DNA of 64,000 nucleotides from NCBI GenBank assembly GCA_036506975.1, contig DASXQW010000384.1:125-64124 (forward strand), given 5' to 3'. The notes under the pieces are model-generated. The model saw nothing but the letters and a program-made list of their open reading frames with translations, was not told the DNA's origin and did no database searches. Positions 21,679-59,259 of this stretch are shown here, piece after piece. This DNA is from Casimicrobiaceae bacterium. GTDB taxonomy: Bacteria; Pseudomonadota; Gammaproteobacteria; Burkholderiales; Casimicrobiaceae. Made by a program: the position numbers and the translations under genes. The stretch's first letter is position 1. The number at the start of each line of letters is the position of its first letter.

Positions 21679-21680
21679 AC

Positions 21681-23289: not shown

Positions 23290-23305
23290 AGCAGCGCGAG
23301 GCACG

Positions 23306-42916: not shown

Positions 42917-43399
42917 TTGGCCCACGACAATCTCACGTACGACGACCTGCTGCGAATCGTCGAGCTGATCAAGACTTCGGAGCAGTTTTCCGAGTTCCGG
43001 CTGAAGATCGGCGAGATCGAGGTCGAGCTGCGCCGCCGTGGTGCGGCGGGCGCGCCGGCGCCACTAGCGTCGTCGAGCCCGCCGGCGCCGGTTGCGCAGC
43101 CCGCCGAGCCGGTGCCGGCGCGCGAGGCGCCGAGCTGGCCCGAAGGCTCGATCGTCATCCGCTCCCCGATGGTCGGAACGTTCTATCGCGCCCCCGAGCC
43201 GGGCGCGCGGCCGTTCATCGATGTCGGCCAAGCCGTGGAACCCGACACGACGGTGTGCATCATCGAGGTCATGAAGCTGATGAACTCGATTCCCGCCAGC
43301 GCATGGGGGACGGTCATGCAAATCCTCGTCCAGGACGCGGCCGCGGTCGAAGCCGGGCAGCCGCTGATCGTGCTGCAGCCGGAAGCCGAGCCGGAATGA
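42917..43399 (+). CDS. Biotin carboxyl carrier protein (AccB-like)
   Basis: 160 aa with a TTG start. Ala/Pro-rich linker. Biotinyl-Lys motif IIEVMKLMNSIPA. Confidence 0.85.
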   Translation: MAHDNLTYDDLLRIVELIKTSEQFSEFRLKIGEIEVELRRRGAAGAPAPLASSSPPAPVAQPAEPVPAREAPSWPEGSIVIRSPMVGTFYRAPEPGARPFIDVGQAVEPDTTVCIIEVMKLMNSIPASAWGTVMQILVQDAAAVEAGQPLIVLQPEAEPE

Positions 43400-44763
43400 A
43401 GACCACCACACGTCCTTTTCGCCGCATCCTCGTCGCGAACCGCGGCGAAATCGCTCTTCGGATCATTCGCGCCTGTCACGAGGTTGACATCGAGGCGATC
43501 CAGGCTTACTCCGAGGCTGATCGCGATTCGCTTCCGGTACGGCTCGCCGACGGCTCGATCTGCGTCGGACCGCCGCCGCCGAGCCAGAGCTACCTCAGGA
43601 TCGATGCGTTGATCGCCGCGGCGCGCATGGCGAAGGCCGACGCGATCCACCCCGGCTACGGTTTCCTCTCCGAGAACGCGGCGTTTGCCCGGGCGTGCGA
43701 CGACGCCGGCATTGTGTTCATCGGTCCGCCCGAGCGCGCGATTGCGCTGATGGGCGACAAGGTGGCTGCGCGGCGAATGGCGGCGGAGGCAGGGGTGCCC
43801 GTCACGCCGGGATCGCCGGGAACGCTTCCGCACGCCGCGGCCGCGCGCGAGGTCGCAGCCACACTCGGTTACCCGGTGCTCCTCAAGGCGGCCGCCGGTG
43901 GGGGCGGGCGCGGCATGCGGGTGGTGCACGACGAAGCGCAGCTCGCGGCGCGCTTCACCGACGCCGCACGCGAGGCGCAAGCGGCGTTCGGAGACGGCGG
44001 CCTTTACGTCGAGAAGTTTCTCGAGCGCGTCCGCCACGTGGAGATCCAGGTGCTTTCCGACGGCGAGACCGTGTTGCACCTCGGCGAGCGCGACTGCTCG
44101 ATCCAGCGCCGCAATCAGAAGCTCGTCGAGGAAAGCCCGTCACCCGCGCTCGACGACGCCATGCGCGCGCGGATGGGCGAGGCGGCGGTGCGTGTCTGCC
44201 GGCATGTCGGATATCGCAGCGCCGGCACGATCGAGTTCGTCGTCGACGCTGCGAGCGGGGCCTTCTACTTCATGGAAATGAACACGCGTGTGCAGGTCGA
44301 ACATCCGGTCACCGAACTCGTCACCGGCATCGATATCGTCAAGGCGCAGATTCGCATCGCGCAGGGCGAGCGGCTGCAGATCGCGCAGGGCGACGTGCGG
44401 CTCACCGGCCACGCGCTCGAATGCCGGATCAACGCGGAGGATGCCGCGCGCGACTTCGCGCCCTCGCCCGGCGAGGTGCGCGCGCTGCGCCTGCCCGGGG
44501 GACCCGGCATCCGCATCGACTCGCATCTGTTCGCCGGGTATCGTGTTCCGCCCTACTACGATTCGCTGCTCGCGAAGGTGATCGCCTGGGGCCGCGACCG
44601 CGACGAAGCAATCGCGCGCATGCGCCGCGCCATCGGCGAGATGCAAGTCGAAGGCGTGCACACGACGCTGGCGTTCCACGCGCGGCTGCTCGCCGACGAG
44701 CGCTTCCGCCGCGGCGACGTGCATACGCGTTTTGTCGAAGACGAGCTTGCGAGGACAGCATGA
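43396..44763 (+). CDS. Biotin carboxylase (AccC-like)
   Basis: The real start is MKTTTRPFRRILVANRGEIALRIIRAC (455 aa), with an ATGA overlap with the BCCP gene. Also KAAAGGGGRGMRVV and MEMNTRVQVEHPVTE. Confidence 0.95.
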   Translation: MKTTTRPFRRILVANRGEIALRIIRACHEVDIEAIQAYSEADRDSLPVRLADGSICVGPPPPSQSYLRIDALIAAARMAKADAIHPGYGFLSENAAFARACDDAGIVFIGPPERAIALMGDKVAARRMAAEAGVPVTPGSPGTLPHAAAAREVAATLGYPVLLKAAAGGGGRGMRVVHDEAQLAARFTDAAREAQAAFGDGGLYVEKFLERVRHVEIQVLSDGETVLHLGERDCSIQRRNQKLVEESPSPALDDAMRARMGEAAVRVCRHVGYRSAGTIEFVVDAASGAFYFMEMNTRVQVEHPVTELVTGIDIVKAQIRIAQGERLQIAQGDVRLTGHALECRINAEDAARDFAPSPGEVRALRLPGGPGIRIDSHLFAGYRVPPYYDSLLAKVIAWGRDRDEAIARMRRAIGEMQVEGVHTTLAFHARLLADERFRRGDVHTRFVEDELARTA

Positions 44764-46235
44764 AGGCACGCAACGACGCCTCCGGAAGCGCTCCGCGCTT
44801 CGATTTCATCGACGTCACGCTGCGCGATGCGCACCAGTGTCTGTGGTCGACGCGGATGACCACCGCGATGATGACGCCGATCCTCGGCGCGATCGACCGC
44901 GCCGGTTATTCGTTCATCAACATCCTCGGCGGCGCCGTGTTCGACGTGTGCGTGCGCTACCTGCAGGAGAACCCGTGGGAACGCGTCGGCCTGCTCTGCG
45001 AGCGGCTCGCCACACCGTGCGACGGCCTCACCCGCGGGCAGAGCCTGTACACATTCGAGCTCTTTCCCGACGACATCGTCGCGCTCAACTCGCACGCGCT
45101 CGCCCGTCGCGGCATCGAGGTACTGACTGTCTACGACGCGCTGAACGACAACCGCAACATCGCCTCGTCGGTGCATTCGGGGCACGAGGCGGGGATGAAG
45201 GTCAACGCGATGATGACCTACACGCTGTCGCCGGTGCACACCGACGCCTACTATGTCGATTGCACGCGCGAGTTGGTCGCGCTCGACGTCGACTTCATCT
45301 CGATCAAGGATCCGACCGGCCTGCTCACTCCCGAGCGCGGCCGCACGCTGTTCCCGGCCGTCGTGCACGCCGCGGGCGGCATTCCGCTGCAGCTGCATTC
45401 GCATTGCCAGTCGGGGCTCTCGCCCGAGGTCTACGAGATCGCGATGCAAAGCGGGTTCCGGCTCGGCTATACGGCGAGCGAGCCGCTCGCCAATGGCGCC
45501 TCGTTGCCGGCGACCGAGGACGTGCTCGCGCGTGCGCGCCGGCTCGGTTTCGCGACGTCGATGAACGACGCGGCGCTCGCCGAGATCGCGGGCTACTTCA
45601 ACTGGGTGTGCGAGCGCGAGGCCAAGCCGCGCGGCGAGATCGCCGCCTACGACCCCGCGCTCTACGAGCACCAGATCCCGGGCGGAATGATCTCGAATCT
45701 GCGTTATCAGCTGGAGACGATGAAGCTCGAACACCGGCTGCCCGAGATCCTCGAGGAGGTTGCGCGCGTGCGGCAGGACCTCGGTTACCCGATCGTCGTG
45801 AGCCCGTTCGCGCAGTACATCGTCACGCAGGCGACGCTGAACGTCGTGCAGGGCGAGCGCTACAAAACGATCCCCGACGAGATCCGCAAGTACGCGCGCG
45901 GCTACTATGGCCGGCTCGCCGCGAAACCTTCGGACGAGTTCCTCGAGCGCGCGAACATCCGCGACTCGGAGTACGTGACCGAGGCGCCTGCAGCGCACCT
46001 CGAGCCGTGGGTCCCGCGCCTTCGTGCCGAGCTCGGATCGGCGGCGGGCGATGAAGACGTCCTGCTCGCGGCGTTCTATGCTCGCAAGCTGATCGAGCCG
46101 CTGCGCAATCCGGCGCCCGAATGCCGCTTTCGCACCACGCCGCTCACCGAGCTCGTCGGCTTCCTCGCGAGACGCACCGACATCGGCTACGCGCGCATCC
46201 GTTTCGCGGGCGCCGATATGATGGTTTCGGCGTAG
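44760..46235 (+). CDS. 5S-type carboxyltransferase (DRE-TIM) without a biotinyl domain, copy 2
   Basis: Start MKARNDASG (491 aa), with an ATGA overlap with the biotin carboxylase gene. IDVTLRDAHQCLWSTRM, ISIKDPTGLL, LQLHSHC. Shares an identical run of about 40 nt (TTCGACGTGTGCGTGCGCTACCTGCAGGAGAACCCGTGGG) with copy 1. Confidence 0.85.
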   Translation: MKARNDASGSAPRFDFIDVTLRDAHQCLWSTRMTTAMMTPILGAIDRAGYSFINILGGAVFDVCVRYLQENPWERVGLLCERLATPCDGLTRGQSLYTFELFPDDIVALNSHALARRGIEVLTVYDALNDNRNIASSVHSGHEAGMKVNAMMTYTLSPVHTDAYYVDCTRELVALDVDFISIKDPTGLLTPERGRTLFPAVVHAAGGIPLQLHSHCQSGLSPEVYEIAMQSGFRLGYTASEPLANGASLPATEDVLARARRLGFATSMNDAALAEIAGYFNWVCEREAKPRGEIAAYDPALYEHQIPGGMISNLRYQLETMKLEHRLPEILEEVARVRQDLGYPIVVSPFAQYIVTQATLNVVQGERYKTIPDEIRKYARGYYGRLAAKPSDEFLERANIRDSEYVTEAPAAHLEPWVPRLRAELGSAAGDEDVLLAAFYARKLIEPLRNPAPECRFRTTPLTELVGFLARRTDIGYARIRFAGADMMVSA

Positions 46236-46245
46236 CGGTTCGCGC

Positions 46246-46968
46246 TTGGACCTCGTCACGCTGACGGCAGCGGCCACGATCGCCGGCATCGCGGGCGTCG
46301 TGCGCGGGATCACGGGCTTCGGCGGCGCGCTGGTGATGTCGCCGCCGCTCGCGCTGCTGCTCGGCCCGCGGCTCGCGGTTCCCGTCGTGCTGCTGCTCGA
46401 GTCGGTCATCGCCGCGCCGATGCTCGTGCACACGCGCCACCTCGTGCACTGGCGTGTGATCGGCGCAATCCTCGCAGCCGCCTGCGCGACGGTGCCGCTC
46501 GGCACGCTCATCCTGGTCGCCACCGATCCGCAGATCATCCGGCGCGCGATCGCGGCGACGGTGATCGTGTTCGCGTTTGTGCTGCTGCGCGGCTGGCGCT
46601 ACACGGGCCGGCCGCGGCTCGTCACGTCGGTCGGGCTCGGCGCGGCGAGCGGGGCCATGCTCGGCGCGACGAGCGTCGGCGGCCCGCCGGTGATCCTCTA
46701 TCTGCTTTCCGGTCCCGACCCCATCGAGACCACGCGCGCGAATCTCACGCTGTACGTCACCGTCACCTCGCTCGTCGGCATCGTCATGCTGTGGCGCCAT
46801 GGCGTGTTCGACGCGCGCGCCGCGTGGACCTCATTGTGGCTCGCGCCGGCCTACTACGCCGGGCTCGGCGCCGGCGTGCGCCTGTTTCCGCGCTTCAGCG
46901 ACACGCGCTTCCGGCAGCTGACGCTGTCGCTGCTGATCGGCGTGTCGATCGTGATTCTGCTCGCGTGA
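46246..46968 (+). CDS. tauE: TauE/SafE-family anion (sulfite) exporter-like permease
   Basis: 240 aa with a TTG start and 7-8 TM segments. Internal duplication with G-rich motifs (GITGFGGALV, GATSVGGPPV) typical of DUF81/TauE. Confidence 0.75.
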   Translation: MDLVTLTAAATIAGIAGVVRGITGFGGALVMSPPLALLLGPRLAVPVVLLLESVIAAPMLVHTRHLVHWRVIGAILAAACATVPLGTLILVATDPQIIRRAIAATVIVFAFVLLRGWRYTGRPRLVTSVGLGAASGAMLGATSVGGPPVILYLLSGPDPIETTRANLTLYVTVTSLVGIVMLWRHGVFDARAAWTSLWLAPAYYAGLGAGVRLFPRFSDTRFRQLTLSLLIGVSIVILLA

Positions 46969-47018
46969 TCGATGCGGCCGGCTTGCCTTATGCGCATCCG
47001 TGACGCTACATTTGTTGC

Positions 47019-47453
47019 ATGAAGGTACTGGTCACCGGCGTCATCGGTTCCGACACGCATATCGTGGGCAACCGCATTCTTTCGATGGCGCTGGAACAGG
47101 CGGGATACAAGGTCATCGCCCTGGGCGCGCTGACTCCCGCCGACGAATTCATCAAGGCGGCGGTGGAAACCAACGCCGACGCGATCATGGTGTCCTCGCT
47201 CTACGGTCAGGGCGAGCTCGACTGTCGTGGCTTCCGTGACATGTGCGTCGAAGCCGGGCTCGACCACATCCTGCTATACATAGGTGGCAATCTCGTCGTG
47301 GGCAAGCAGTCGTGGCCCGAGGTGGAAAGGCGATTCCTCGACATGGGCTTCGATCGGGCTGCGCCGCCGGGGACGAGGATCGAGACAGTGCTCGCGTGGC
47401 TCGCGCAGGATTTCGCCTCGCGCGAGCGAGCGATGCAGGGTGGCGGGGATTGA
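47019..47453 (+). CDS. glmS: Glutamate mutase (methylaspartate mutase) sigma subunit, B12-binding
   Basis: 144 aa. [18 protein letters not shown] contains the DxHxxG cobalamin His-ligand motif. Length and sequence match MutS/GlmS of clostridial glutamate mutase. Confidence 0.9.
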
Positions 47454-47457
47454 CGCG

Positions 47458-48876
47458 ATGGAGAGCGCTGCGCTTCTGATCGACTTCGGCAGCACGTACA
47501 CCAAGCTGCGCGCAGTCGATCTCGATCGGCGTCGCATCCTCGGAGCCGGTCAGGGTCCCTCGACGGTCACCTCGGATATCATGGTCGGCATGAAAGCCGC
47601 GCTGCTGGATCTGGAACGGCGCCTGGGTGGTTTGCCCCGCTTCCGGTACCGGCTCGCATCGAGCAGCGCCGCGGGCGGACTGCGGATGGTGACTGTAGGT
47701 CTGGTCCGCGAGCTCACTGCGGAGGCGGCGCGCCGCGCCGCGCTGGGTGCTGGCGCGAAACTGGTCGGCACGTTCGCGCAGCGCCTCACTCAAGGCGACG
47801 TCGGGGCCATCGTGACGCGGGCGCCGGATATCCTTTTGCTGGCGGGCGGCACTGACGGCGGCAACAGCGACGTCATCCTGCACAACGCAGCCGCGCTCGG
47901 CCGAAGCGCCCTCTCGTGCCCGATCGTGCTCGCCGGCAACCGCAGCGCGACCGACGCCGCGCTGGCGCTGCTCGCGGGCAAGGACGTCATCGTGACCGAG
48001 AACGTCATGCCGGAGTTCAACGTCCTCAACATCGAGCCCGCGCGCGCGGCGATTCGCCAGGTGTTCATCGACCGCATCGTGCACGCCAAGGGCATCGACC
48101 GGGCGCAGGCCGAGTTCGATCAGATGCTGATGCCTACGCCCGCGGCCGTGTTGGAAGGAGCGCGGCTGCTCGCCGACGGCTGCGAAGGCGTGTCAGGCCT
48201 CGGGCCGCTGCTGGTGATCGATCCGGGCGGCGCAACCACCGACGTGCACTCGATAACAAGCGGCGAACCGTCGCTGCCCGGGGTCATCGTCCAGGGGCTG
48301 CCCGAGCCACGCGTCAAGCGCAGCGTCGAGGGCGACCTCGGCATGCGCCACAACGCGGCCAATATCGTGGAGGTTGCCGGGCTCGAAGCGATTGCAGCCG
48401 ATGCCGGGCTCGCGCCGGCGCGGGTCGCTGTCTTGGTCGCGGAGATCGCGCAGGATGTGGAACGCCTGCCACGGGCGACCGAGGAGATCGCGCTCGATCA
48501 GGCGCTGGCGCGGGCTGCGGTCGCTCAGGCGGTGATGCGGCACTGCGGCACGGTGGAAACGATTTACACGGTCGTGGGACCGGTCAGCGTGCAGCACGGC
48601 AAGGACTTGTCGATGGTCGGCACGGTCATCGGCACGGGCGGCGCTCTCGTACACAGCAGTGACCCGAAAGCGGTGCTGGCGATGGCGCTGGCCGAACCCT
48701 CGGCGCCGCAGTCGCTGCGACCCAGACGACCGAAGCTGTTGCTCGACCGCGGCTATCTGCTCTATGCCTGCGGCCTGCTCGGCGCCGTCGATCCCCCTGC
48801 CGCGCTCGGCCTCGCCTTGGCGAACCTCGAGCCGCTCGATGCGGAGCAAGCCCTTGAACGCACCCGCATCGCCTGA
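47458..48876 (+). CDS. glmL: Glutamate mutase accessory/reactivating protein (MutL/GlmL)
   Basis: The real start is MESAALLIDFGSTYTKLRAVDL (472 aa). Also SSSAAGGLRMVTVGLVRELTAEAARRAALGAGAK, LLAGGTDGGN, IDPGGATTDVHS. Strong resemblance to the remembered MutL sequence. Confidence 0.85.
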   Translation: MESAALLIDFGSTYTKLRAVDLDRRRILGAGQGPSTVTSDIMVGMKAALLDLERRLGGLPRFRYRLASSSAAGGLRMVTVGLVRELTAEAARRAALGAGAKLVGTFAQRLTQGDVGAIVTRAPDILLLAGGTDGGNSDVILHNAAALGRSALSCPIVLAGNRSATDAALALLAGKDVIVTENVMPEFNVLNIEPARAAIRQVFIDRIVHAKGIDRAQAEFDQMLMPTPAAVLEGARLLADGCEGVSGLGPLLVIDPGGATTDVHSITSGEPSLPGVIVQGLPEPRVKRSVEGDLGMRHNAANIVEVAGLEAIAADAGLAPARVAVLVAEIAQDVERLPRATEEIALDQALARAAVAQAVMRHCGTVETIYTVVGPVSVQHGKDLSMVGTVIGTGGALVHSSDPKAVLAMALAEPSAPQSLRPRRPKLLLDRGYLLYACGLLGAVDPPAALGLALANLEPLDAEQALERTRIA

Positions 48877-50350
48877 AGCTACCCGTACGCCGCTCTCCGA
48901 GGATCGCATCCCGGACGACGTGTTCGCCGTGATGCGCCGGGAGAATCTGGCGCGCTGGCCTTCAGGCGCCGCGGTCGATTTCGATGCCGCCGTCGACCTG
49001 CAGCGCGAGCTTCCGCGGCACAAGCAGCTCGGCTGGACGATGCGCCGTGCAGTCGCCGAGCGGCGCTGCCTGACGCAGCCGCGCGGCGGCTTCGCGACCT
49101 TCGAAATGCAGCGGGCGCTGATGGTGACGCTCGATCGCGAAGGGCTCGCCGACATCGTGCCGACCACCACCGACAGCTACACCCGCAACGAGCAGTGGCA
49201 GCTCGCGCAGAAGGGAGTCGAGGAGTCGGAGCGCGCCGGCCGTTCGATGCTCAACGGCTATCCGATCGTCAATTACGGGGTCGACTGCGCGCGCCAGCTC
49301 ATCGCCGCGATCGACAAGCCCGCGATCATGCTGACCGGCACGACGATGCCGAAGCTCACCAGCGAGATTGCCTTTGCCGGCGGCTACTCCGGGTATCTCG
49401 GGTCCGGCATCGCCTATACGACCTCGTATATCAAGGAGCTCTCGATCGAGGACGGGATCCGCAATTACCAGTATCTGGATCGCCTGGCCGCGCTCTACGG
49501 CGAGCACGGCGTCGAGCTGCACCGACGCCAGCCGGGTTTTCTCACCGGGACCAATATCCCTCCCTGCATCGCGATTGCCACGTGCGTCCTCGACTGCCTG
49601 CTCGCGGCGGCGCAAGGCGTCAAGAATTACGGCCTAGAGATGGGCGAGACGCTGCACCTCATCCAGGACGCCGCGGCCGTTGCGGCGTGCGGCGAGCTCG
49701 CCCAGGAGTATCTCGCCACAAAGGGCTACCACGACGTCTTCACCGCGGTGACGCTGCTGCATTGGATGAGCGCGTGGCCGCAGGACGACGCCCAGGCGGC
49801 GGCGCTGATCAGCTACGGCGGCACGCTCGCGGCGATCAGCGGCGCGGCGAGCGTGACCACCAAGAGCACTCACGAGGCGTTCGGCATCCCGACGCCGCAA
49901 GCCAATGCCGAAGGGCTGCGGATGACGCGCATGGCGATCTATCTCGCGCGCAACATCCGGCTCGACGGGCTGCCCGCGTACGAGCAGGAAAAAGCGCTGA
50001 TCGGGCGCGAGGTGCGCGCGATCGTCGACAAGGTCCTCGAGATGGGCGACGGCGATGTCGCCGTCGGCGCCGTGCGCGCGTTCGAGGCGGGGGTGCTCGA
50101 TGTTCCCTGGTCGCCGAATCGCCACTGTCGGAGCCGAGTCCTGCCGGCGCGCGATGTCGACGGTTACCTGCGCATCCTCGATCCGGGGCTGATGCCGTTT
50201 CCACGCGACATCATGGAGCTGCACGCCGAGCGACTGCGTAAACGCGCCGAGCGTGACAAGATCGCCTTCGGTCCGGACCTCGCGGTGAGCAGCGTGTACG
50301 AGATTGGGGAGCCCATCGGCAAGCTCCTGCCCGACAACTGGGCGCGCTAG
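48839..50350 (+). CDS. glmE: Glutamate mutase (methylaspartate mutase) epsilon subunit
   Basis: TQPRGGFATFE, TTDSYTRNEQW, ERAGRSMLNGYPIVNYGV and TKSTHEAFGIPT parallel the clostridial GlmE. The ATG 48839 start (38-nt overlap with glmL) is the only in-frame ATG upstream of the conserved N-terminus. Confidence 0.9.
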   Translation: MRSKPLNAPASPEATRTPLSEDRIPDDVFAVMRRENLARWPSGAAVDFDAAVDLQRELPRHKQLGWTMRRAVAERRCLTQPRGGFATFEMQRALMVTLDREGLADIVPTTTDSYTRNEQWQLAQKGVEESERAGRSMLNGYPIVNYGVDCARQLIAAIDKPAIMLTGTTMPKLTSEIAFAGGYSGYLGSGIAYTTSYIKELSIEDGIRNYQYLDRLAALYGEHGVELHRRQPGFLTGTNIPPCIAIATCVLDCLLAAAQGVKNYGLEMGETLHLIQDAAAVAACGELAQEYLATKGYHDVFTAVTLLHWMSAWPQDDAQAAALISYGGTLAAISGAASVTTKSTHEAFGIPTPQANAEGLRMTRMAIYLARNIRLDGLPAYEQEKALIGREVRAIVDKVLEMGDGDVAVGAVRAFEAGVLDVPWSPNRHCRSRVLPARDVDGYLRILDPGLMPFPRDIMELHAERLRKRAERDKIAFGPDLAVSSVYEIGEPIGKLLPDNWAR

Positions 50351-50393
50351 GAGCCGACCGCGCCCATCGTTCGGGACGCGACATCATCCGCGC

Positions 50394-51515
50394 ATGCAGC
50401 ACCTCGACAAGGTCACGGTATACCGCCTGCGCGTGCCGCTGGTAAGGCCGTATCGTCTGGCGTTCGGGGCGGTCGAACATTACGACACGATCGTCGTGGA
50501 GGCCATGCGCCCTGATGGGCAGCGGGGGTTCGGCGAGGCGACCGTGCTTACCGGCTACACCGATGAAACCATCGAGGATAGCTGGAGCGTCGCCCGTGAG
50601 TTCGCAGCCGAGCTGGCGGGTGTCGGCTGCGACAGCGCGGCCATCAAGGTAGCGCAGCTCGGGCTGAAGTTCCCGTTCACCGCGACGGCCTTCGGCACGG
50701 CGCTCGAGATGCTGGCGGGTAGCGAGACGCTCAAGGTCGGCGCCGGAACACGCGTTCCGCTGGTCGGGCTGCTGCACACCGAAGACGAGGGCGCGATGGC
50801 GGCCGAGTTCGAGCGGCTGCTCTGCGAGGGCTACCGGACGATCAAGGTGAAGGTCGGCTTCGACGTCGGCGCCGATCTGCGCCGCGTGCACCGCGTGCAG
50901 CGCGTCGCGGCAGGGCGCGCCCGGATTCGCATCGACGCCAACCAGGGGTACACGGCAGACGAAGGTCGTGCGTTCGCGACCGCGCTCGATCCGGCCGGCA
51001 TCGAGCTCTTCGAGCAGCCTTGCGCAGCGGGAGACTGGGACGCGCACCTGGCCGTGGCTCGCGCCTCGCCGGTGCCGATGATGCTCGACGAATCGATCTA
51101 CGGGCTGGCCGACATCGAGAAGGCCGCGGCGCTCCGCGCGGCGAGCTACATCAAGGTCAAGCTCATGAAGCTGGTGACGCTCGAGCGCCTGACCCAGGCG
51201 ATCGAGCGCATCGCCGCGCTGGGGATGCGGGCGGTGCTGGGCAACGGGGTCGCGTGCGATCTCGGCTGCTGGATGGAAGCGTGCGTCGCCGCGCGCCACA
51301 TCGACAACGCGGGCGAAATGAATGGCTTCTTGAAGGCGCGCTCCGGGCTCCTGACCGACGAGCTCGCAGTCGCCGGGGGCGCGATCGCGCTCAGCTCCGA
51401 CTTCGCGCCGCAGCTCGATCCGCAAGCGCTTGAGCGCTATCGCGTCGATTCCGTCAGTGGGGCGGCGCCCCCTGCACGCACCGCCGCAGCATGGACCGGG
51501 CCGGCGAGCGAATGA
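50394..51515 (+). CDS. Enolase-superfamily enzyme, MLE subgroup (dipeptide-epimerase/racemase-like); not methylaspartate ammonia-lyase
   Basis: 373 aa. KxK motif TIKVKVG. Metal-ligand contexts RIDANQGY, ELFEQP, MLDESI. Second catalytic Lys in YIKVKLMK. Confidence 0.85.
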   Translation: MQHLDKVTVYRLRVPLVRPYRLAFGAVEHYDTIVVEAMRPDGQRGFGEATVLTGYTDETIEDSWSVAREFAAELAGVGCDSAAIKVAQLGLKFPFTATAFGTALEMLAGSETLKVGAGTRVPLVGLLHTEDEGAMAAEFERLLCEGYRTIKVKVGFDVGADLRRVHRVQRVAAGRARIRIDANQGYTADEGRAFATALDPAGIELFEQPCAAGDWDAHLAVARASPVPMMLDESIYGLADIEKAAALRAASYIKVKLMKLVTLERLTQAIERIAALGMRAVLGNGVACDLGCWMEACVAARHIDNAGEMNGFLKARSGLLTDELAVAGGAIALSSDFAPQLDPQALERYRVDSVSGAAPPARTAAAWTGPASE

Positions 51516-52498
51516 AGGCGATCGCCATCGCCCGATTCGGTGGCCCCGAGGTCCTTAAGCTGATCGAGGTCCCTGACCCCGTCCCAGCCGCGGGTGAAGC
51601 GCTGGTGGCGCTCGAATACGCCGGCGTCAACTTCATCGATGTGTACATGCGCAGTGGCCACTATGCGCGCTCACACACGTATCGGACGGCTCTGCCGATG
51701 ACGATAGGTATGGAAGGTGGCGGTACGGTCGCAGCGCTGGGCGAAGGCGTGGCCGAGCTTGCCGTAGGCGATCGCGTCGCCTACTGCATCGTCCGCGGGA
51801 GCTATGCGCAATCCGCGGCCGTGCCGGCATGGCGGCTGGTCAAGATCCCGCCGCAAATACCGACGCCGGCGGCAACGGCGTTGATGTTGCAGGGTCTCAC
51901 CGCGCACTACCTGAGCCACTCCGCCTATGTGCTGGGACCGGGAAAGAGTTGCCTCGTGCATGCGGGAGCGGGTGGCGTGGGACAGCTTCTGATCCAGCTC
52001 GCCAAGCTGCGCGGCGCGACGGTTTTCGCCACCGTCGGCAGCGACGAAAAGGCTGTCGTCGCCCGGCAGCGCGGCGCCGACCATGTCATCCTTTACCGCG
52101 ACCAGGACTTTCGCGATGAGTTGATGCGCATCACCGGAGGCAAAGGCGTTGATGTCGTCTATGACGCGGTGGGAAAGGACACGATTGCACGCAGCGTCCG
52201 CTGCCTCGCCCGACGCGGCTTGTGCGTAAACTTCGGCGGCGCCTCCGGTCTGGTGCAGACCATCGACCCGCTGGAGCTGGCCGAGGCGGGGTCGGTGTTC
52301 TTTACGCGACCGCATCTTGCGGATTACATTGCCACACGTGCGCAACTGGTCGATCGCGCGGCCGACCTTTTTGCCGCGTACACCGCCGGCAAGCTCACCG
52401 TGACCATCGACTGCGAGTTTCCGCTCGAAGCCGCCGAAGAGGCGCATCGCCGTCTCGAAGGCCGCAGCACCCAGGGCAAACTGCTATTGCGAGTTTGA
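51512..52498 (+). CDS. MDR-family NAD(P)H:quinone oxidoreductase-like protein (zinc-free)
   Basis: 328 aa. ATGA overlap with the enolase gene. Rossmann motif VHAGAGGVGQLLIQLAK. C-terminal GRSTQGKLLL. Confidence 0.85.
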   Translation: MKAIAIARFGGPEVLKLIEVPDPVPAAGEALVALEYAGVNFIDVYMRSGHYARSHTYRTALPMTIGMEGGGTVAALGEGVAELAVGDRVAYCIVRGSYAQSAAVPAWRLVKIPPQIPTPAATALMLQGLTAHYLSHSAYVLGPGKSCLVHAGAGGVGQLLIQLAKLRGATVFATVGSDEKAVVARQRGADHVILYRDQDFRDELMRITGGKGVDVVYDAVGKDTIARSVRCLARRGLCVNFGGASGLVQTIDPLELAEAGSVFFTRPHLADYIATRAQLVDRAADLFAAYTAGKLTVTIDCEFPLEAAEEAHRRLEGRSTQGKLLLRV

Positions 52499-52566
52499 TT
52501 CGCGTCGAGTGCTTACCAAGAAAGCGCATCGGCGTTCGGAGACGATCACAGCCAAGGAGGTTCACG

Positions 52567-53535
52567 ATGAGACTTGCCTATCTACAGCAGCTGGGGCTGC
52601 GCGGTTTGCTGGCATTCCTGCTTGCGCTTGCAGGCGGTATCGCGGCCGCGCAGGAGAAATACCCGTCGCGTCCGATCGAATTCATTGTGCCCTGGGGCCC
52701 CGGAGGCGGAGCCGACCAGGTCGCCCGCAAATCCGGCAAGATGATGGAGGAAGACCTCAAGGTTTCCTTCCCGGTCGTCAACGTGCCTGGCGCGACGGGC
52801 AACACCGGCATGGCGAAGCTGCTGGCGGCTCCCGCCGATGGCTACTCGATCTCGGTGATGACCTGGGACACTTACGCGCTGCTTGCGACGACTAATACGC
52901 GCTGGAGTCTTAAGGACATCATCCCGGTCGCGCTGATGATCAAGCAGCCCTCCGCGTTCCTGTCCGCCACCAACAGCAACCTCAAGACCTGGGCCGATGT
53001 CGAGCGCGAAGCCAAGGCGCGGCCGCTCAAGGTCGCGATCACCGGGTTCGGCAGTCCGGACGACATCACGGTGAATTTCTTCGTGGCGCGCGGGCTGAAG
53101 CTGATCGCGGTGCCGTTCGCAAACCCGGGCGAGCGCTACACCTCGGTCCTCGGCGGGCATGCGGATCTGCTCTACGAGCAGCTCGGTGACGTAAGGAGTT
53201 TCCTCGACAGCAAGCAGATCCAGCCGGTGATCATCTTCGCGGCGAAACGCTTCGGCGTCTTCCCCGACGTTCCGGCGTCGCAGGAACTGGGCTACGACAT
53301 CACCCTGCCGCAGCGCCGCGCGGTGATCGTGAAGGCCGGAACCGATCCCGCGAAGGTCAAGGTGATCTCCGAGGCGCTGGCGAAGGTCGCCGCAAGCGCC
53401 GAGTACAAGGCCTATCTCCAGGAACAATACGCGACGGACGACAGCTACTTCGCGGCGCAGGACGCGGCGAAGATCATGGAGGAGGATCTCGACCAGATGA
53501 AGCGCATCGCAGGGCAGGCACCGGCGAAGAAGTAA
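52567..53535 (+). CDS. tctC: Tripartite tricarboxylate transporter substrate-binding protein (Bug/TctC family)
   Basis: Start MRLAYLQQ after an AAGGAGG RBS, with a signal peptide. YPSRPIEFIVPWGPGGGADQVAR is the hallmark Bug N-terminus. Confidence 0.85.
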   Translation: MRLAYLQQLGLRGLLAFLLALAGGIAAAQEKYPSRPIEFIVPWGPGGGADQVARKSGKMMEEDLKVSFPVVNVPGATGNTGMAKLLAAPADGYSISVMTWDTYALLATTNTRWSLKDIIPVALMIKQPSAFLSATNSNLKTWADVEREAKARPLKVAITGFGSPDDITVNFFVARGLKLIAVPFANPGERYTSVLGGHADLLYEQLGDVRSFLDSKQIQPVIIFAAKRFGVFPDVPASQELGYDITLPQRRAVIVKAGTDPAKVKVISEALAKVAASAEYKAYLQEQYATDDSYFAAQDAAKIMEEDLDQMKRIAGQAPAKK

Positions 53536-53597
53536 TCGGGCGCCAAGCGGCGGATCGGGGTACCAGTGGCAGGCAAGCGCATGCTCGGAGAACCGGC

Positions 53598-54158
53598 TTG
53601 CTAGCTCGCCTGCGCAAAATCGTGCCGTACGTGATCGTGCTGGCGGTTGCGGCGTTTCTGTACCTGCTCGCCAACCGGATCGAGTTCGTCGCGCCCGGCG
53701 GCCGCATCGGACCGGACTTCTGGCCGAAGGCGATCCTGCTCCTCGCGATGGCGACGTGCGCGTACGAGATCGTCAAGACATTGTTCCTCGGCCGCCCCGA
53801 TCAGGAGGTCGCGGGCGTGCTGGAAAGCATCATCGAGGAAGCGCCGGCTGACACCGAGGCGCAGCAGCCCCCGGCAAGATCCTATCTTCACCTGCTGCTG
53901 ATCGGCGTGGCCATGACGATCGCGTATGTGGTGCTGATCGAGCGGCTCGGGTTCTTTCTCTGCACTTTCCTCTACCTTGCTGGTTTCACGTGGGTCGGTC
54001 GCTATCGGCGGCTTGGCATCGTGCTCGCGAGCAGCCTCCTGGGCAGCCTCGTTTTCATGTTCGTCTTCATGAAGATCGTGTACGTCTCGTTGCCGCTGGG
54101 CCAGGAGCCGTTCTCGCAAGTATCGTTCCTGCTGATGCGGCTGATGAGCATTCGCTAG
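53598..54158 (+). CDS. tctB: Tripartite tricarboxylate transporter small membrane protein TctB
   Basis: 186 aa with 4 TM segments, positioned between tctC and tctA. TTG start is uncertain. Confidence 0.65.
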   Translation: MLARLRKIVPYVIVLAVAAFLYLLANRIEFVAPGGRIGPDFWPKAILLLAMATCAYEIVKTLFLGRPDQEVAGVLESIIEEAPADTEAQQPPARSYLHLLLIGVAMTIAYVVLIERLGFFLCTFLYLAGFTWVGRYRRLGIVLASSLLGSLVFMFVFMKIVYVSLPLGQEPFSQVSFLLMRLMSIR

Positions 54159-54167
54159 GGAAGTTCC

Positions 54168-55691
54168 GTGCTCGGGGTCGCGCAACAATTTGCCGCGGGC
54201 TTTCTGACCGTATTCGAGCCCATCAACCTGACGGCTCTGGTCATCGGGCTCGTTGTCGGCATGCTCGTGGCGGTGCTGCCGGGGCTGACGCTGGTCATGG
54301 GCGTCGTGCTGGCGCTGCCGTTCACCTATGGCATGCCGATCGCGCCGTCGATCATTCTGCTCACCGCGATGTACATCTCCGGCACCTACGGGGGAGCATT
54401 CACCTCGATCCTGTTCCGGATTCCGGGGGAGCCGCTCGACGTGCCGCTGTTGTGGGACGGCTACGCGATGGCGCACAAGGGCCAGCCGGCCAAGGCGCTC
54501 GGCTGGACGCTGTTCGCGGCCCTGACCGGCGGCTTGGTGTCCACACTCGCTGCGGTCACCATGGCGCACCCGTTCGCGACGTTCGCTCTCAAGTTCGATT
54601 CCCCCGAGTACTTCTCGATCATCCTGTTCGGGCTCACCAGCGTGGTTGCGCTCAGCGGCGCTTCGATCGTGAACGGCTTCATCAGCCTGTTCCTCGGACT
54701 GATGCTCGCGTGCGTCGGCGTCGATTCGATCTACGGCGCCGAACGCTTCACCTTCGGCGTACCCATGCTTGCCGACGGCATCGAGTACCTGACCGTGATG
54801 GTCGGCGCCTATGGCCTCGGCGAGGTGCTCGTGCGTCTGGAGCAGGGGTTTCAGACACCGCCCCTGCAGGCGGGCGGCAAAGTGGCCACGCGATTCCCGT
54901 CGCTGAAGGAAGTATGGGCGATCAAGCCCACGCTTGCGCGAAGCACGATCCTTGGCATCATTCTCGGGATCATCCCCGGCGCCGGAGCGACGATCGCGTC
55001 TTTCGTCTCCTACGGCACCGAAGCGCAGTACTGCAAGCGGCGCAACGAGCTCGGCAGCGGCATCGCCGAGGGCATCGTCGCGCCGCAAACCGCCTCGACC
55101 GCGACTGTCGCCGGCCATATGGTGCCGTTGCTCACGCTCGGCATACCCGGCAGCGGCGCGACCGCAGTCATCCTCGGTGCATTCCTGCTGCACGGGATGC
55201 AGCCGGGCCCGCAGGTGTTCATGCACAACCCGGGTCTGGTTTACGCGATTTTTGCTTCGCTGTTCGTGGGTGTGATCGGCATGTGCCTGATGGGCTACTT
55301 TGCGATCAAGGCGTTGATCAAGGTCCTGTACTTGCCGGAAGCGGTGACCTCGGCCTTCGTCGTGCTGTTCTGCTTCATCGGGGCGTTTTCCCAGCGCAAC
55401 AACGTCACCGATCTGTCGATGATCGTGATATTCGGCATCGTCGGTTACCTCTTCGAGAGGTTCAAGTTCCCGATTGCGCCGATGGTGCTCGGGTGCATCC
55501 TCGGCACGCAGGCGGAAAGCTCGTTCATGACCAGCATGATCAGTTACCAGAACGACTGGACCGTCTTCTTTACGCGGCCGATCAGCGGCGTGGTCATGGT
55601 GCTCGTCGTTGTCGCGCTCGTCTTCCCCCTCGTCCGCCATCTTCGCCACCGCTACGGGAAGCGGCTGCCGGCATCACACACCGGGGCTTGA
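54168..55691 (+). CDS. tctA: Tripartite tricarboxylate transporter large permease TctA
   Basis: 507 aa, polytopic. VLPGLTLVMGVVLALPFTYGM and IIPGAGATIASFVSYG are typical of TctA. Confidence 0.9.
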   Translation: MLGVAQQFAAGFLTVFEPINLTALVIGLVVGMLVAVLPGLTLVMGVVLALPFTYGMPIAPSIILLTAMYISGTYGGAFTSILFRIPGEPLDVPLLWDGYAMAHKGQPAKALGWTLFAALTGGLVSTLAAVTMAHPFATFALKFDSPEYFSIILFGLTSVVALSGASIVNGFISLFLGLMLACVGVDSIYGAERFTFGVPMLADGIEYLTVMVGAYGLGEVLVRLEQGFQTPPLQAGGKVATRFPSLKEVWAIKPTLARSTILGIILGIIPGAGATIASFVSYGTEAQYCKRRNELGSGIAEGIVAPQTASTATVAGHMVPLLTLGIPGSGATAVILGAFLLHGMQPGPQVFMHNPGLVYAIFASLFVGVIGMCLMGYFAIKALIKVLYLPEAVTSAFVVLFCFIGAFSQRNNVTDLSMIVIFGIVGYLFERFKFPIAPMVLGCILGTQAESSFMTSMISYQNDWTVFFTRPISGVVMVLVVVALVFPLVRHLRHRYGKRLPASHTGA

Positions 55692-55792: not shown

Positions 55793-57622
55793 CTAGATGA
55801 AGTGGTGCACGGGAAGCTTCGACATCTGCCAGGCTCCCGTATTCGCGTCGTACCGCGACCCCGTGAACACGTGCCATGCGTCATCGTCGAGCTTCGGATG
55901 ATCGGCGCGGTAGTAGTAACCGGGCCAACGCGTCTCCTCGCGGAACAGCGTATGCCGTGCGACCGATTCCGCCGTCACTATCCGGTGGTGCAGCTCCCAA
56001 GCGCGCTGCAGCTGGTGCAGGTCCTCCGCACCGAGCTGTTGTGCATCTCGCTTCAGGTCGTCGAGGAGCTCCAGCGAGCGGTTGAGCAGCGGCTCGTTCG
56101 TCACGTAGAACATGCTGTAGCCGCCGACGTATTCGTCCATCAGCTTCTCCAGCCGTTGCAGGCCCTGCAGCGGGGTGATGAAATTCGGTGAAACGGTACC
56201 GGCGACGAACTCGTTGCGTCCGATTCGGTGGTTCTCCAACGGCTTGAAGACCGTCTCCTCGAGCTTGCGCGCGTTCGCCTCGTCGACGTGCGGCGCGTCG
56301 TTCTTCATGTCGAGGACGTAGCGGACGGCCGCCTTGCCCGCGAGCCGTCCCTCGGTGAACGATCCCGCGGAGAATTTGTGCGCCGATCCGCCGATCGTGT
56401 CGCCCGCGCCGAAGAGCCCGTTCACGGTAGTCATCCGGTTGTAGCCCCACTGGTAGTCGGTCGGCGCGCAATCCTCGGGACCGCTCGCCCACGCGCCCGA
56501 GCACGTCGCGTGCGAGCCCATGATGTACGGCTCCGAGGTCGTCAGCTCGGACGGCTGCTCCTTCGGGTCGATACCCTGCGCAGCCCAGACCACCGCCTGG
56601 CTGATCGTCATGTCGAGGAAGTCCTCCCAGCCAATCTCCTCCTTTTCCGCCGTGTCGAGCACCTTCTGCGTATGCATGTAGATCGGGCCCTTGCCCGCCT
56701 TGACCTCCTCGATCAGCGAGTGGTTGCGGAGGCATGTCGGCATCGGATGCAGCTCGGCGTACTTGCCGACGCGCGCCTTGATCTCGTCAAAGCGTGCGGC
56801 CTCATAGAGCTCACCCGCGGCATTCGTGACCTGCGCCTTCAGCAGCAGGAACCACGCCCCAACCGGACCGTACCCGTCCTTGAAGCGCGTCAGGACGATC
56901 TTGTTCTCCATCTGCGTCATCATTGCGCCCGTCGGTATCAGCAGGCCATAAGCGGACGCTGTGCTCCACGGAGCGTACCAGGTACGCCCCATGCCCTCGC
57001 CGACGGACCGCGGACGATAAATGTGCGAACCGCCGCCGGCGCCGACGATGACTGCCTTCGCGCGGAACACGTAGAACTCGCCGGTGCGCACATGGAAACC
57101 AACGGCGCCCGCGATGCGGTTCGCCTTCTCGCTGTCCATCAGCAGGTGCGTCACCATGATCCGGTTGTAGACCTCGGTGACGGACTTGCGTGCGGCCTCG
57201 GCGACGATCGGCTTGTAGCTCTCGCCGTGGATCATGATCTGCCACTTGCCTTCGCGCAGGTAGCGGCCGGTCTCCGGATTCTTGATGATCGGCAGGCCCC
57301 ATTCCTCGAACTTGTGTACCGTCGAGTCGACGTGGCGGGCGATGTCGTAGACCAGGTCCTCGCGCACCAGACCCATGAGGTCGCCGCGCGCGTAGCGCAC
57401 GAAGTCCTCGGGCTGGTTCTCGTTCCACTGCATGCCCATGTAGCAGTTGATCGCGGAGAGACCCTGCGCGACGGCCCCGCTACGCTCGATATTCGCCTTC
57501 TCCACGAGGACGATCTTGAGATCCCGGCCCCAGAAGCGCGACTCGTACGCCGCGCCGCACCCGCCGAAGCCGCCGCCTACGATCAGGATGTCCGAATCGA
57601 CGAAGCGAGTTCTTCTCGCCAT
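55793..57622 (-). CDS. aprA: Adenylylsulfate (APS) reductase alpha subunit
   Basis: 609 aa. FAD motif ILIVGGGFGGCGAA. The sequence is AprA-like throughout (GAVAQGLSAINCYMG, WQIMIHGESYKPIV, REETRWPGYYYRADHP). Confidence 0.9.
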   Translation of the reverse strand: MARRTRFVDSDILIVGGGFGGCGAAYESRFWGRDLKIVLVEKANIERSGAVAQGLSAINCYMGMQWNENQPEDFVRYARGDLMGLVREDLVYDIARHVDSTVHKFEEWGLPIIKNPETGRYLREGKWQIMIHGESYKPIVAEAARKSVTEVYNRIMVTHLLMDSEKANRIAGAVGFHVRTGEFYVFRAKAVIVGAGGGSHIYRPRSVGEGMGRTWYAPWSTASAYGLLIPTGAMMTQMENKIVLTRFKDGYGPVGAWFLLLKAQVTNAAGELYEAARFDEIKARVGKYAELHPMPTCLRNHSLIEEVKAGKGPIYMHTQKVLDTAEKEEIGWEDFLDMTISQAVVWAAQGIDPKEQPSELTTSEPYIMGSHATCSGAWASGPEDCAPTDYQWGYNRMTTVNGLFGAGDTIGGSAHKFSAGSFTEGRLAGKAAVRYVLDMKNDAPHVDEANARKLEETVFKPLENHRIGRNEFVAGTVSPNFITPLQGLQRLEKLMDEYVGGYSMFYVTNEPLLNRSLELLDDLKRDAQQLGAEDLHQLQRAWELHHRIVTAESVARHTLFREETRWPGYYYRADHPKLDDDAWHVFTGSRYDANTGAWQMSKLPVHHFI

Positions 57623-57626
57623 GACG

Positions 57627-58076: not shown

Positions 58077-58080
58077 GTCG

Positions 58081-58842: not shown

Positions 58843-58949
58843 CTCCGTGTGAAGTCGCCCGGGCCAGTGGGTCGGGCGGGAAGTTGCATGCTAGCGCGGC
58901 AATCTGCCGTGTGCTCGATGACTTTGCCAATTCAAGTCGTCTATCCGGT

Positions 58950-59200: not shown

Positions 59201-59259
59201 CGAAATCAACCTGCTCCCTGAACGCCTGATGCGCGTCGCACACGGCGCTCGCCGCGCGC

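Follow-up and report, generated by a model that had tools for sequence, protein, structure and literature searches.

A cobalamin-dependent mutase and an enolase superfamily partner form a conserved gene module that is probably not glutamate catabolic and may act on sulfonated carboxylates

The window analysed in this work is a 64-kb stretch of DNA from a Casimicrobiaceae bacterium (contig DASXQW010000384.1, positions 125 to 64,124), and the system in question is an operon on its plus strand (42917-55691). The operon encodes homologues of the adenosylcobalamin (AdoCbl)-dependent glutamate mutase proteins GlmS, GlmL and GlmE, an enolase superfamily enzyme of the MLE subgroup (ENO), a medium-chain dehydrogenase/reductase (MDR) and the TctCBA components of a tripartite tricarboxylate transporter (TTT). 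The original prediction had described it as a glutamate mutase operon that lacks methylaspartate ammonia-lyase (MAL) and is fused to a biotin carboxylase and a TauE-type permease. Our analysis instead classes the mutase and ENO as a B12 mutase/enolase superfamily pair whose specificity and pathway context are new: the variant GlmE is probably an AdoCbl mutase acting on a substrate other than glutamate, so that the operon is probably not glutamate catabolic. That the core, glmS-glmL-glmE-ENO-MDR-tctCBA, combines such a non-glutamate mutase with the breakdown of a sulfonated carboxylate, as modelled below, is a reading in which we place about as much belief as doubt.

Results and Discussion

A variant substrate pocket in the catalytic subunit

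The GlmS-like B12-binding subunit (47019-47453, plus strand as for all genes of the operon; PRK02261, 190 bits against a cutoff of 110), the GlmL/MutL-type reactivase-like accessory protein (47458-48876, after a gap of 4 nt; Pfam MutL, 516 bits; NF040745, 561 bits against a cutoff of 475) and the GlmE-like catalytic subunit (48839-50350, with an overlap of 38 nt; TIGR01503, 438.8 bits against a cutoff of 390.1) each exceed the NCBIfam equivalog cutoffs for methylaspartate mutase, and public annotation pipelines label the catalytic subunit "methylaspartate mutase subunit E". The DxHxxG motif of base-off/His-on B12 binding is present in GlmS as DTHIVG. Alignment of the window GlmE with that of Clostridium cochlearium (1CB7/1CCW chain B, whose residue numbering is used throughout) gives 42% identity (E = 1e-108) and is gap-free over residues 7-214. 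The glycyl moiety of glutamate is held by R66 and R149 (carboxylate) and by E171 (hydrogen bond to the amine), while R100 and Y177 bind the acrylate fragment (PMC10947579). The window GlmE retains R66, T94, R100, N123, Y177, Y181, K326 and E330 and carries the substitutions R149L, H150T, N170Y and E171L. Among the retained residues, R100, Y177, K326 and E330 belong to the acrylate site and to the site of the cofactor's adenosyl ribose. Judged from these residues, the acrylate/radical half of the site is intact, with the glycyl half that defines glutamate rebuilt.

These replacements are shared by the whole group of mutases that adjoin ENO, with L149/L171 present in all 44 such GlmE homologues. 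When 90 variant sequences were set against 32 canonical ones, every variant sequence had leucine in place of both R149 and E171 and every canonical one retained both residues; approximately 20 positions proved clade-specific, including A67G, I95T, Q101N, N212H and I248Y. The variant clade is discrete (at least 61% identity inside, at most 44% to anything outside): a search of 1.84 billion representative proteins returned one full-length representative of it (66% identity) together with fragments, the next match being a canonical GlmE at 42% identity. It spans four phyla, with the L149/L171 signature reaching large clades in other phyla, and relatives of its GlmE turn up on 517 metagenome stretches. 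In the GlmE family as a whole, the canonical glutamate signature is found in only about one third of 120 full-length representatives; R100, N123, K326 and E330 are nearly invariant among these, whilst positions 66, 149, 150, 170, 171, 177 and 181 are very variable, and the family probably harbours many unassigned mutases. Some representatives also carry a fused B12 domain, either C- or N-terminal.

The presence of MAL was analysed alongside these residues. No MAL was found in approximately 165 variant loci, while MAL was adjacent in all three of the canonical GlmE loci examined. A canonical GlmE from an anaerobe contig lies beside MAL, mesaconase and citramalate lyase, and those on Ensifer and Gemmobacter plasmids lie beside MAL, a CoA-transferase, a CoA-ester lyase and fumarase; a tblastn search of plasmids returned no variant GlmE, just canonical GlmE or GlmE linked to nonribosomal peptide synthetases. 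Within the window, no annotated open reading frame exhibits a Pfam MAAL domain and tblastn with three MAL proteins gave a best E-value of 0.24, which bears out the earlier observation that a MAL-like reading frame is missing here. Because R149 and E171 are lost, and because GlmE proteins that retain both residues adjoin MAL, the operon is unlikely to encode a glutamate mutase.

The enolase superfamily partner

ENO is encoded directly after the catalytic subunit (50394-51515, after a gap of 43 nt) and has Pfam MR_MLE_C as its only domain match. It belongs to the MLE subgroup of the enolase superfamily by its KxK motif, three acidic ligands and a second lysine base: the catalytic and metal-binding set, K151, K153, D181, E207, D232 and K256, does not vary among 16 orthologues and matches Bacillus subtilis YkfB position by position in the alignment. 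The best matches in the PDB are L-Ala-D/L-Glu epimerases (AEE) at approximately 83 bits. ENO falls below each curated NCBIfam cutoff for the MLE families (AEE, o-succinylbenzoate synthase/N-succinylamino-acid racemase (OSBS/NSAR), DgcA, MLE and c3LHyp dehydratase), the best scores (cutoffs) being 96 (130.55), 87 (334.95), 76 (500), 70 (400) and 59 (500). Orthologues across phyla are 37-40% identical over their full length, and identity to any characterised enzyme is at most about 25%. A divergent MAL was considered and ruled out: besides the MR_MLE_C-only domain content, ENO has no MAAL_N or MAAL_C domain, no BLAST match to MAL at E <= 1e-5 and an hhalign probability of 0.1%.

The placing of an MLE-type protein in the position of MAL, as reported originally, holds far beyond the window, as described below. 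Pairwise identities of ENO and GlmE are correlated (r = 0.88 over 66 loci), which fits co-inheritance of the two proteins, although shared phylogeny alone would suffice as an explanation. ENO orthologues also exist without the mutase, in five loci (L025, L029, L070, L072, L087) beside housekeeping genes of the dapA/bamC type; the mutase-less loci also hold MDR, a TauD/TfdA-family dioxygenase, SauS, SauT and a distinct TctC (23-25% identical).

Conservation of the unit across genomes

Homologues of ENO were detected in 541 GTDB species genomes, and the best 80 of these 541, on which the locus counts out of 80 given here are based, come nearly all from uncultured Burkholderiales, Casimicrobiaceae or other Betaproteobacteria. 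In 36 loci ENO is well flanked, with at least 6 kb on either side: GlmS was present in 33 of them, GlmE in 30, MDR in 26 and TctA in 24, while biotin carboxylase (BC), TauE and a beta-keto acid cleavage enzyme (BKACE) were each present in a single one. Gene order varies between glmSLE-ENO-MDR-tct, ENO-MDR-glmSLE, ENO-glmSLE-MDR and tctCBA-ENO-glmSLE. Outside this group, Desulfitobacterium, Peptococcaceae, Chloroflexota and an unassigned contig encode glmSLE with an orthologous ENO and TctCBA, the TctC proteins of the Peptococcaceae and Chloroflexota loci being 48-52% identical to that of the window. Well-flanked loci from sediment metagenomes contain ENO in nine and TctC in 12 of 13 cases, and the usual order in sediment and wetland contigs is tctCBA-glmS-glmL-glmE-LUD-ENO. 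A cultured bacterium, Pelomicrobium sp. G1, also has ENO-glmSLE (L071). The conserved unit is thus glmSLE together with ENO, usually accompanied by TctCBA and a redox partner that depends on the lineage: the variant mutase is inherited jointly with one specific MLE-type enzyme and usually with a specific TTT importer. Genomes with the module number in the hundreds and come from Burkholderiales, Firmicutes, Chloroflexota and sediments.

Two further arrangements were observed at such loci. The region upstream of the variant cluster in a Peptococcaceae metagenome-assembled genome (MAG; L092, 1-2789) encodes a PrpF-like isomerase, another protein of the MutL/GlmL type and a PrpB/dimethylmalate-lyase-like protein, an arrangement that recalls the 2-methyleneglutarate mutase cluster of nicotinate fermentation or a methylcitrate cluster. 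The window itself contains a BKACE with a short-chain dehydrogenase/reductase (SDR) and an ABC transporter, whose substrate-binding protein has no Pfam match, as a module for carnitine-type cleavage of beta-keto acids that diverges from the operon (37127-41947, minus strand); BKACE is also found directly upstream of glmS in L009 and L018 (L009, 5733-6566) and at the right edge of L093. The BKACE/SDR pair was dropped as a pathway component, with BKACE adjacent in only two to three loci, and may be accessory or a coincidence.

Redox partners and importer

The window MDR (51491-52498, overlapping ENO by 25 nt; ADH_N/ADH_zinc_N) is of the quinone oxidoreductase (QOR) type and scores 271 bits with PRK10754, below the cutoff of 348; an alternative start at 51512 would yield an ATGA overlap with ENO. 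Its nearest structures are Mycobacterium tuberculosis Qor (4RVU), 2-haloacrylate reductase (1wly, 233 bits) and Escherichia coli QOR (1QOR), all within 232-235 bits, which makes an NAD(P)H-dependent C=C (enoate/enone) reductase the probable function. A redox enzyme is nearly always found inside the module, whilst its family switches by lineage: the partner is an Old Yellow Enzyme (OYE)/2-enoate-reductase-like flavoenzyme in Desulfitobacterium, an FrdA/TfrA-like flavoprotein in one further locus (L100) and, in 31 sediment loci, a LUD-domain protein encoded between glmE and ENO, in the place that MDR takes in Burkholderiales. Because these non-orthologous families displace one another, a C=C (or hydroxy-acid) redox step appears to be part of the pathway. 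The LUD protein is approximately 210 amino acids long with a C-terminal cysteine-rich motif (L099-L178; for example L135, 6544-7224).

The importer genes follow MDR as tctC (52567-53535, gap 68 nt; Pfam TctC, 82.7 bits), tctB (53598-54158, gap 62 nt; Pfam TctB, 56.3 bits) and tctA (54168-55691, gap 9 nt; Pfam TctA, 441 bits). TctC of the window type accompanies the mutase across phyla, with a NitT/TauT-type ABC transporter instead of the TTT system in two loci (L056 and L041). TTT systems are known to import sulfolactate (SlcHFG) and sulfoacetate (SauXYZ) (PMC5812351, PMC10413351).

The biotin carboxylase and TauE are accessory

The operon of the window begins with a free-standing biotin carboxyl carrier protein (BCCP; 42917-43399; Pfam Biotin_lipoyl; TIGR00531, 130.8 bits against a cutoff of 115.2), followed through ATGA overlaps by an ATP-grasp BC (43396-44763; Biotin_carb_N/CPSase_L_D2/Biotin_carb_C; PRK08591, 683 bits) and a 5S-type carboxyltransferase (44760-46235; PYC_OADA; PRK09282, 423 bits against a cutoff of 402). 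A TauE/SafE (TSUP) anion permease, a candidate sulfite or sulfonate exporter (46246-46968, gap 10 nt; Pfam TauE, 95 bits), lies between these genes and glmS, which starts after a gap of 50 nt. BC, BCCP and the 5S-type carboxyltransferase represent the full component set of a multi-subunit pyruvate carboxylase; the best PDB match of the carboxyltransferase is the beta subunit of pyruvate carboxylase (5ks8_C, 284 bits), and the protein comprises 491 amino acids without a biotinyl domain, the BCCP being encoded separately rather than in a PycB-type fusion.

The original prediction had treated the fusion of carboxylase and TauE to the mutase as a feature of the system, which the wider comparison does not support. 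The complete trio lies in the operon of only the window and its nearest MAG (L010), BCCP is near ENO in one of 80 loci and TauE is near the module in two of 80 (L010 and L053, the latter equal to L006). Elsewhere carboxylase parts are sporadic: BC and BCCP immediately after glmE (L156-L160), BCCP-BC-carboxyltransferase approximately 7 kb downstream of glmE in a locus that also holds a TRAP transporter and a CoA-transferase (L137), and BC with an NDP-forming acyl-CoA synthetase immediately upstream of ENO (L022, L038, L041). Both carboxylase and TauE were therefore rejected as general features of the module. Other lineages encode phosphoenolpyruvate carboxylase (PEPC), pyruvate phosphate dikinase (PPDK), pyruvate:ferredoxin oxidoreductase (PFOR), PrpB/PrpC/PrpF-like proteins or methylmalonate-semialdehyde dehydrogenase (MMSDH) beside it. 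The best interpretation of BCCP-BC-5S is an anaplerotic accessory in three pieces that resembles pyruvate carboxylase and is mostly confined to this lineage, and we infer that it supports a pathway ending in pyruvate, propionyl-CoA or acetyl-CoA. As the carboxyltransferase is nearest to the beta subunit of pyruvate carboxylase, carboxylation of pyruvate is a more parsimonious function than the link between 2-oxobutyrate and 3-methyloxaloacetate that had been suggested.

Further genes of this kind lie upstream in the window. A second 5S carboxyltransferase (31024-32559), 12 kb upstream, is 57% identical to the L010 orthologue of the operon protein; it falls in a region (26933-35963) that begins its gene list with a GntR regulator and in which TRAP transporter genes (DctP, DctM) are mixed with those of a thiolase-like protein, of this carboxyltransferase and of an NDP-forming acyl-CoA synthetase, the last of which is the same as that found with a lone BC upstream of ENO in L022, L038 and L041.

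Sulfonate and sulfite genes surround the module

In different lineages, bona fide genes for Xsc, SauS, ComA, AprAB, Sat and TauE adjoin the module, none of whose own enzymes is known to desulfonate. The window contains a taurine/sulfoacetate island (9665-25961) with Pta, a TauB-like ABC ATPase and a Tpa-like omega-aminotransferase (all on the minus strand), a MocR regulator, an AhpD/AhpC-like pair (minus strand), alanine dehydrogenase (Ald), Xsc, SauS and a SauT-like AMP-forming ligase, of which xsc, sauS and the ligase gene occupy 19795..24826 on the plus strand (TIGR03457, 940 bits; NF047625, 734 bits against a cutoff of 600). Right after tctA, on the minus strand, follow aprA, aprB, a gene for a QmoC/AprM-like membrane protein (weak QmoC match) and sat (55793..60519; Pfam FAD_binding_2/Succ_DH_flav_C, APS-reductase_C and ATP-sulfurylase), a predicted route of indirect sulfite oxidation via adenosine 5'-phosphosulfate (APS) to sulfate.

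Among the 80 loci, tblastn detected SauS in 26, frequently divergent next to ENO, a SauT-like ligase in 15, Xsc in eight and a TauD-like dioxygenase in seven; de novo clustering gave nine loci with Xsc, which lies immediately upstream of ENO in five. In Desulfitobacterium, a single operon under sigma-54 control encodes both the module and a glycyl radical enzyme with its activase, the radical enzyme being 62% identical to a protein named by PGAP as the dehydratase of 2,3-dihydroxypropane-1-sulfonate (DHPS). In nine sediment loci, ComA (phosphosulfolactate synthase equivalog) is found with PPDK; these loci represent several genera (GlmE mutually 62-82% identical, GC 0.43-0.58). Together with a 325-residue P-loop protein without family match, the two form a conserved trio upstream of tctC, which could serve sulfolactate desulfonation by reversal of ComA or act as a sulfite trap. 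Because each of four lineages has its own, different set of sulfonate or sulfite genes, chance is an unlikely explanation. The link to sulfonate and sulfite metabolism, the most speculative remark of the original prediction, is the part that is best backed by comparative context.

The loci with the PPDK/P-loop/ComA trio are L114, L117, L119, L123, L127, L132, L134, L137, L141, L151 and L152. The TauD-like dioxygenase was considered as a strict substitute for the mutase and rejected, as two loci (L054 and L055) hold both. Directly downstream of the island in the window, a gene for a PrpC-like citrate synthase II overlaps that of the SauT-like ligase.

A model for the pathway and the evidence against it

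By analogy with glutamate mutase followed by MAL, a four-step scheme may be drawn for the module. TctCBA would import an anionic carboxylate, X-CH2-CH2-COO-, probably sulfonated; the B12 mutase would shift X through a radical 1,2-shift, so that the leaving group would come to lie beta to the carboxylate; ENO would then remove the alpha-proton and eliminate the beta group, and MDR would reduce the resulting 2-enoate. The genomic context points to a short-chain sulfonated carboxylate as the substrate and, most plausibly, to sulfite as the leaving group, which in the window would be exported by TauE or oxidised by AprAB-Sat. The specific proposal that the module is an AdoCbl-dependent desulfonation route for short-chain sulfocarboxylates, either 3-sulfopropionate or a gamma- or alpha-sulfo acid that the shift would open to beta-elimination, is a tentative one that we regard as possible rather than probable. 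3-Sulfopropionate is a recently recognised product of sulfoquinovose and DHPS fermentation, and according to a 2024 paper its degradation by bacteria had until then been described in a thesis only (PMC11489063).

Several points weigh against the sulfonate scheme, and what lies beyond a non-glutamate mutase coupled to ENO is only what we infer. Enolase chemistry alone could beta-eliminate sulfite from 3-sulfopropionate or sulfolactate, both of them abundant three-carbon sulfonates, with no need for a mutase; if the mutase is required, a gamma- or alpha-sulfo acid is implied as the substrate, and we know of none that is abundant in nature. 4-Sulfobutanoate and 2-sulfoglutarate fit the logic of the scheme, although neither is, to our knowledge, a natural product. 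A migrating -CH2-SO3- group would also be a poorly stabilised radical, and the comparison of 90 variant with 32 canonical GlmE sequences revealed no newly gained arginine or lysine, where an additional anionic group would need to be bound. The nearest relatives of ENO are epimerases and racemases, such that its role as a lyase may be questioned, and MDR is absent from approximately one quarter of the well-flanked loci and replaced by the LUD protein in sediment lineages. Finally, three loci (L091, L092, L094) have no recognisable sulfonate gene and contain a succinate-semialdehyde-dehydrogenase-like/MMSDH aldehyde dehydrogenase or PFOR instead, and the closeness of the sulfonate genes may stem from catabolic islands and not from one shared pathway.

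Candidate substrates were weighed on paper against five constraints: one remaining arginine, loss of the amine site, a need for both mutase and ENO, an ene-reductase, and the Sau/Xsc/ComA links. They comprised 3-sulfopropionate/2-sulfopropionate, sulfolactate (sulfonate or hydroxyl shift), 4-sulfobutanoate, 2-sulfoglutarate, 2-hydroxyglutarate/3-methylmalate, 2-oxoglutarate/3-methyloxaloacetate, 2-methyleneglutarate, glutarate/methylsuccinate, 4-oxo-5-sulfopentanoate, N-acyl-glutamates and homocysteate derivatives. As no candidate meets all of the constraints, we name no substrate.

Alternative explanations

The strongest competitor, which we hold to be rather unlikely, is an oxygen analogue of the methylaspartate pathway that is free of sulfur, in which the mutase would act on 2-hydroxyglutarate/3-methylmalate or another C5 dicarboxylate pair (2-methyleneglutarate/3-methylitaconate, glutarate/methylsuccinate), ENO would be a 3-methylmalate dehydratase or mesaconate hydratase, the reductase would act on mesaconate or itaconate and TctCBA would import the dicarboxylate. 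The pocket suits such a substrate, with E171 lost and R66, R100 and Y177 kept, as would befit a di-anionic C5 acid without an amine; glutamate mutase itself is reported to turn over 2-hydroxyglutarate slowly, elimination of a beta-hydroxyl is the commonest reaction of the enolase superfamily, and di- and tricarboxylates are the usual cargo of TTT systems. Enzymes of 2-oxo-acid, pyruvate or propionyl-CoA metabolism also recur nearby (PFOR, the pyruvate-carboxylase-like enzyme, PEPC, PrpB/PrpC/PrpF-like proteins, MMSDH and family III CoA-transferases), and the three loci devoid of sulfonate genes fit this explanation. It leaves unexplained, however, the recurring company of SauS/SauT/Xsc, the TauD-like dioxygenase, TauE, AprAB-Sat, ComA and the DHPS-type radical enzyme; loss of R149 would be unexpected with the alpha-carboxylate still in place, and conversion of mesaconate to methylsuccinate would be of no obvious catabolic use.

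We also consider it unlikely that ENO is a racemase or epimerase that supplies the right stereoisomer, comparable to methylmalonyl-CoA epimerase beside methylmalonyl-CoA mutase, with desulfonation or cleavage performed by the mutase through radical elimination or by SauT/SauS/Xsc downstream. The nearest characterised relatives of ENO are enzymes of 1,1-proton transfer (L-Ala-D/L-Glu epimerases, N-succinylamino-acid racemase and N-acetyl-D-Glu racemase) and both of its lysine bases are invariant; many loci have sauST divergently adjacent or xsc directly upstream of ENO, and mutase-less loci have ENO and MDR beside a TauD-like dioxygenase and sauST. An enolate beside a beta-sulfonate would nevertheless be expected to expel sulfite and not just to racemise, the ene-reductases would be left without a role, and MLE-subgroup members with the same residues include dehydratases (OSBS).

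The reading of the original prediction, in which a true glutamate mutase delivers 3-methylaspartate to an alternative lyase or epimerase of the enolase superfamily and the biotin carboxylase is linked via 2-oxo acids, is very improbable. In its favour, GlmS, GlmL and GlmE pass the methylaspartate mutase equivalog cutoffs, MAL is itself a member of the enolase superfamily, and the carboxylase genes are co-oriented with ATGA overlaps. A true glutamate mutase was rejected on the basis of the active site residues and the correlation with MAL: R149 and E171 are leucine in all members, whereas genuine glutamate mutases of aerobic Proteobacteria retain both residues and MAL; in addition, the carboxylase trio is missing from nearly all related loci, its carboxyltransferase is nearest to the beta subunit of pyruvate carboxylase, and the operon has no aminotransferase or glutamate dehydrogenase. 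Finally, that the genes are mere neighbours in an island, with TctCBA a SauXYZ-like sulfoacetate importer for sauST/xsc and the mutase, ENO and MDR unrelated, is scarcely credible: the window is a dense sulfonate island and the TTT sulfoacetate importer SauXYZ of B. wadsworthia nearly always adjoins SauS (PMC10413351), yet glmSLE, ENO and tctCBA are interleaved in several orders on one strand with minimal spacing in four phyla, including loci without sau genes, and TctC of the window type follows the mutase, that of mutase-less ENO loci being only 23-25% identical.

Organisation of the operon and remainder of the window

The operon consists of 12 genes, all on the plus strand and free of internal stops, which are separated by overlaps of 4-38 nt or gaps of at most 68 nt; the domain assignment of each gene is backed by Pfam and NCBIfam profiles, and gene inventory, strand and spacers all agree with the earlier description. 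A sequence scan for intergenic terminator-like sites within the operon found none above chance. An independently assembled JGI metagenome contig (L001) contains the same 19 kb with identical gene calls, and in the nearest genome, the Casimicrobiaceae MAG L010, ENO is 92% identical and gene order is unchanged. An IclR-family regulator (41944..42807, minus strand; Pfam HTH_IclR and IclR_C) is divergently encoded, with a 109-nt intergenic region before the operon. The ends of the window hold apparently unrelated genes: a large Orn/Lys/Arg decarboxylase and the large subunit of a molybdenum hydroxylase (glyceraldehyde dehydrogenase/carbon monoxide dehydrogenase-like) at 1689-6366, and a molybdopterin oxidoreductase at 61197-63998.

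Implications

Full-text literature searches for glutamate mutase with sulfonates, the enolase superfamily or TTT systems, and for sulfopropionate or sulfolactate with B12, gave no description of the system. The name methylaspartate mutase is contradicted by the pocket, the obligatory partner and the genomic company of the variant GlmE, which flags a systematic mis-annotation. Few AdoCbl carbon-skeleton mutases are known to us, each having defined a pathway, and the module provides a new B12 enzyme that is open to testing, along with the proteins of a coupled pathway: binding protein, lyase or epimerase, and reductase. There is a substantial chance that it represents a new desulfonation route: if the sulfonate reading is true, this route would be independent of oxygen and relevant to the turnover of sulfoquinovose-derived sulfur, and it would add a new substrate class for AdoCbl mutases and close a gap in the sulfur cycle, being present in over 500 bacterial species from soil, groundwater and sediment.

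Comparison with characterised systems

The mutase shares with the glutamate mutases of C. cochlearium and C. tetanomorphum (1CCW, 1CB7, 1I9C, 6H9E) the S-L-E genes, the DxHxxG motif and 42% identity along the whole of subunit E, but it differs from them in the R149L/H150T/N170Y/E171L replacements of its clade, in an identity of at most 44%, and in never lying beside MAL. As in operons of the methylaspartate pathway, a B12 mutase is immediately adjacent to an enolase superfamily gene; those operons, however, are organised as glmSLE-MAL-mesaconase-citramalate lyase in anaerobes and as glmS(L)E-MAL-CoA transferase-CoA ester lyase-fumarase on the Ensifer and Gemmobacter plasmids, whereas in the window the partner is of the MLE subgroup and a TTT importer and an ene-reductase are found instead of mesaconase and citramalate lyase genes. 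ENO has the catalytic set of AEE (1JPM/1TKK), NSAR/OSBS, DgcA and muconate cycloisomerase, while it is accompanied by a B12 mutase and a TTT system and not by genes of murein peptide, menaquinone or aromatic catabolism. The nearest structural relatives of the window MDR, 2-haloacrylate reductase CAA43 (1WLY) and the NADPH:quinone oxidoreductases, act on C=C bonds, among them that of a free 2-substituted acrylate; the window MDR scores below the PRK10754 cutoff and is replaced by OYE-type, FrdA-like or LUD proteins in other lineages.

The carboxylase resembles the two-subunit pyruvate carboxylase of Methylobacillus flagellatus (5KS8), with a carboxyltransferase nearest to its beta subunit and with BC and BCCP present; oxaloacetate decarboxylase alpha (2NX9) and transcarboxylase 5S (1RQB) were included in the same comparison. 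Unlike the two-subunit enzyme, it comprises three pieces with a separate BCCP, and its genes are embedded in a mutase operon. Lastly, a TctCBA-type transporter beside SauS, SauT and Xsc is reminiscent of SlcHFG and SauXYZ with the Sau/Xsc enzymes, whilst the transporter genes described here are, in contrast to those systems, intermingled with glmSLE and ENO and are retained by lineages that lack sau genes.

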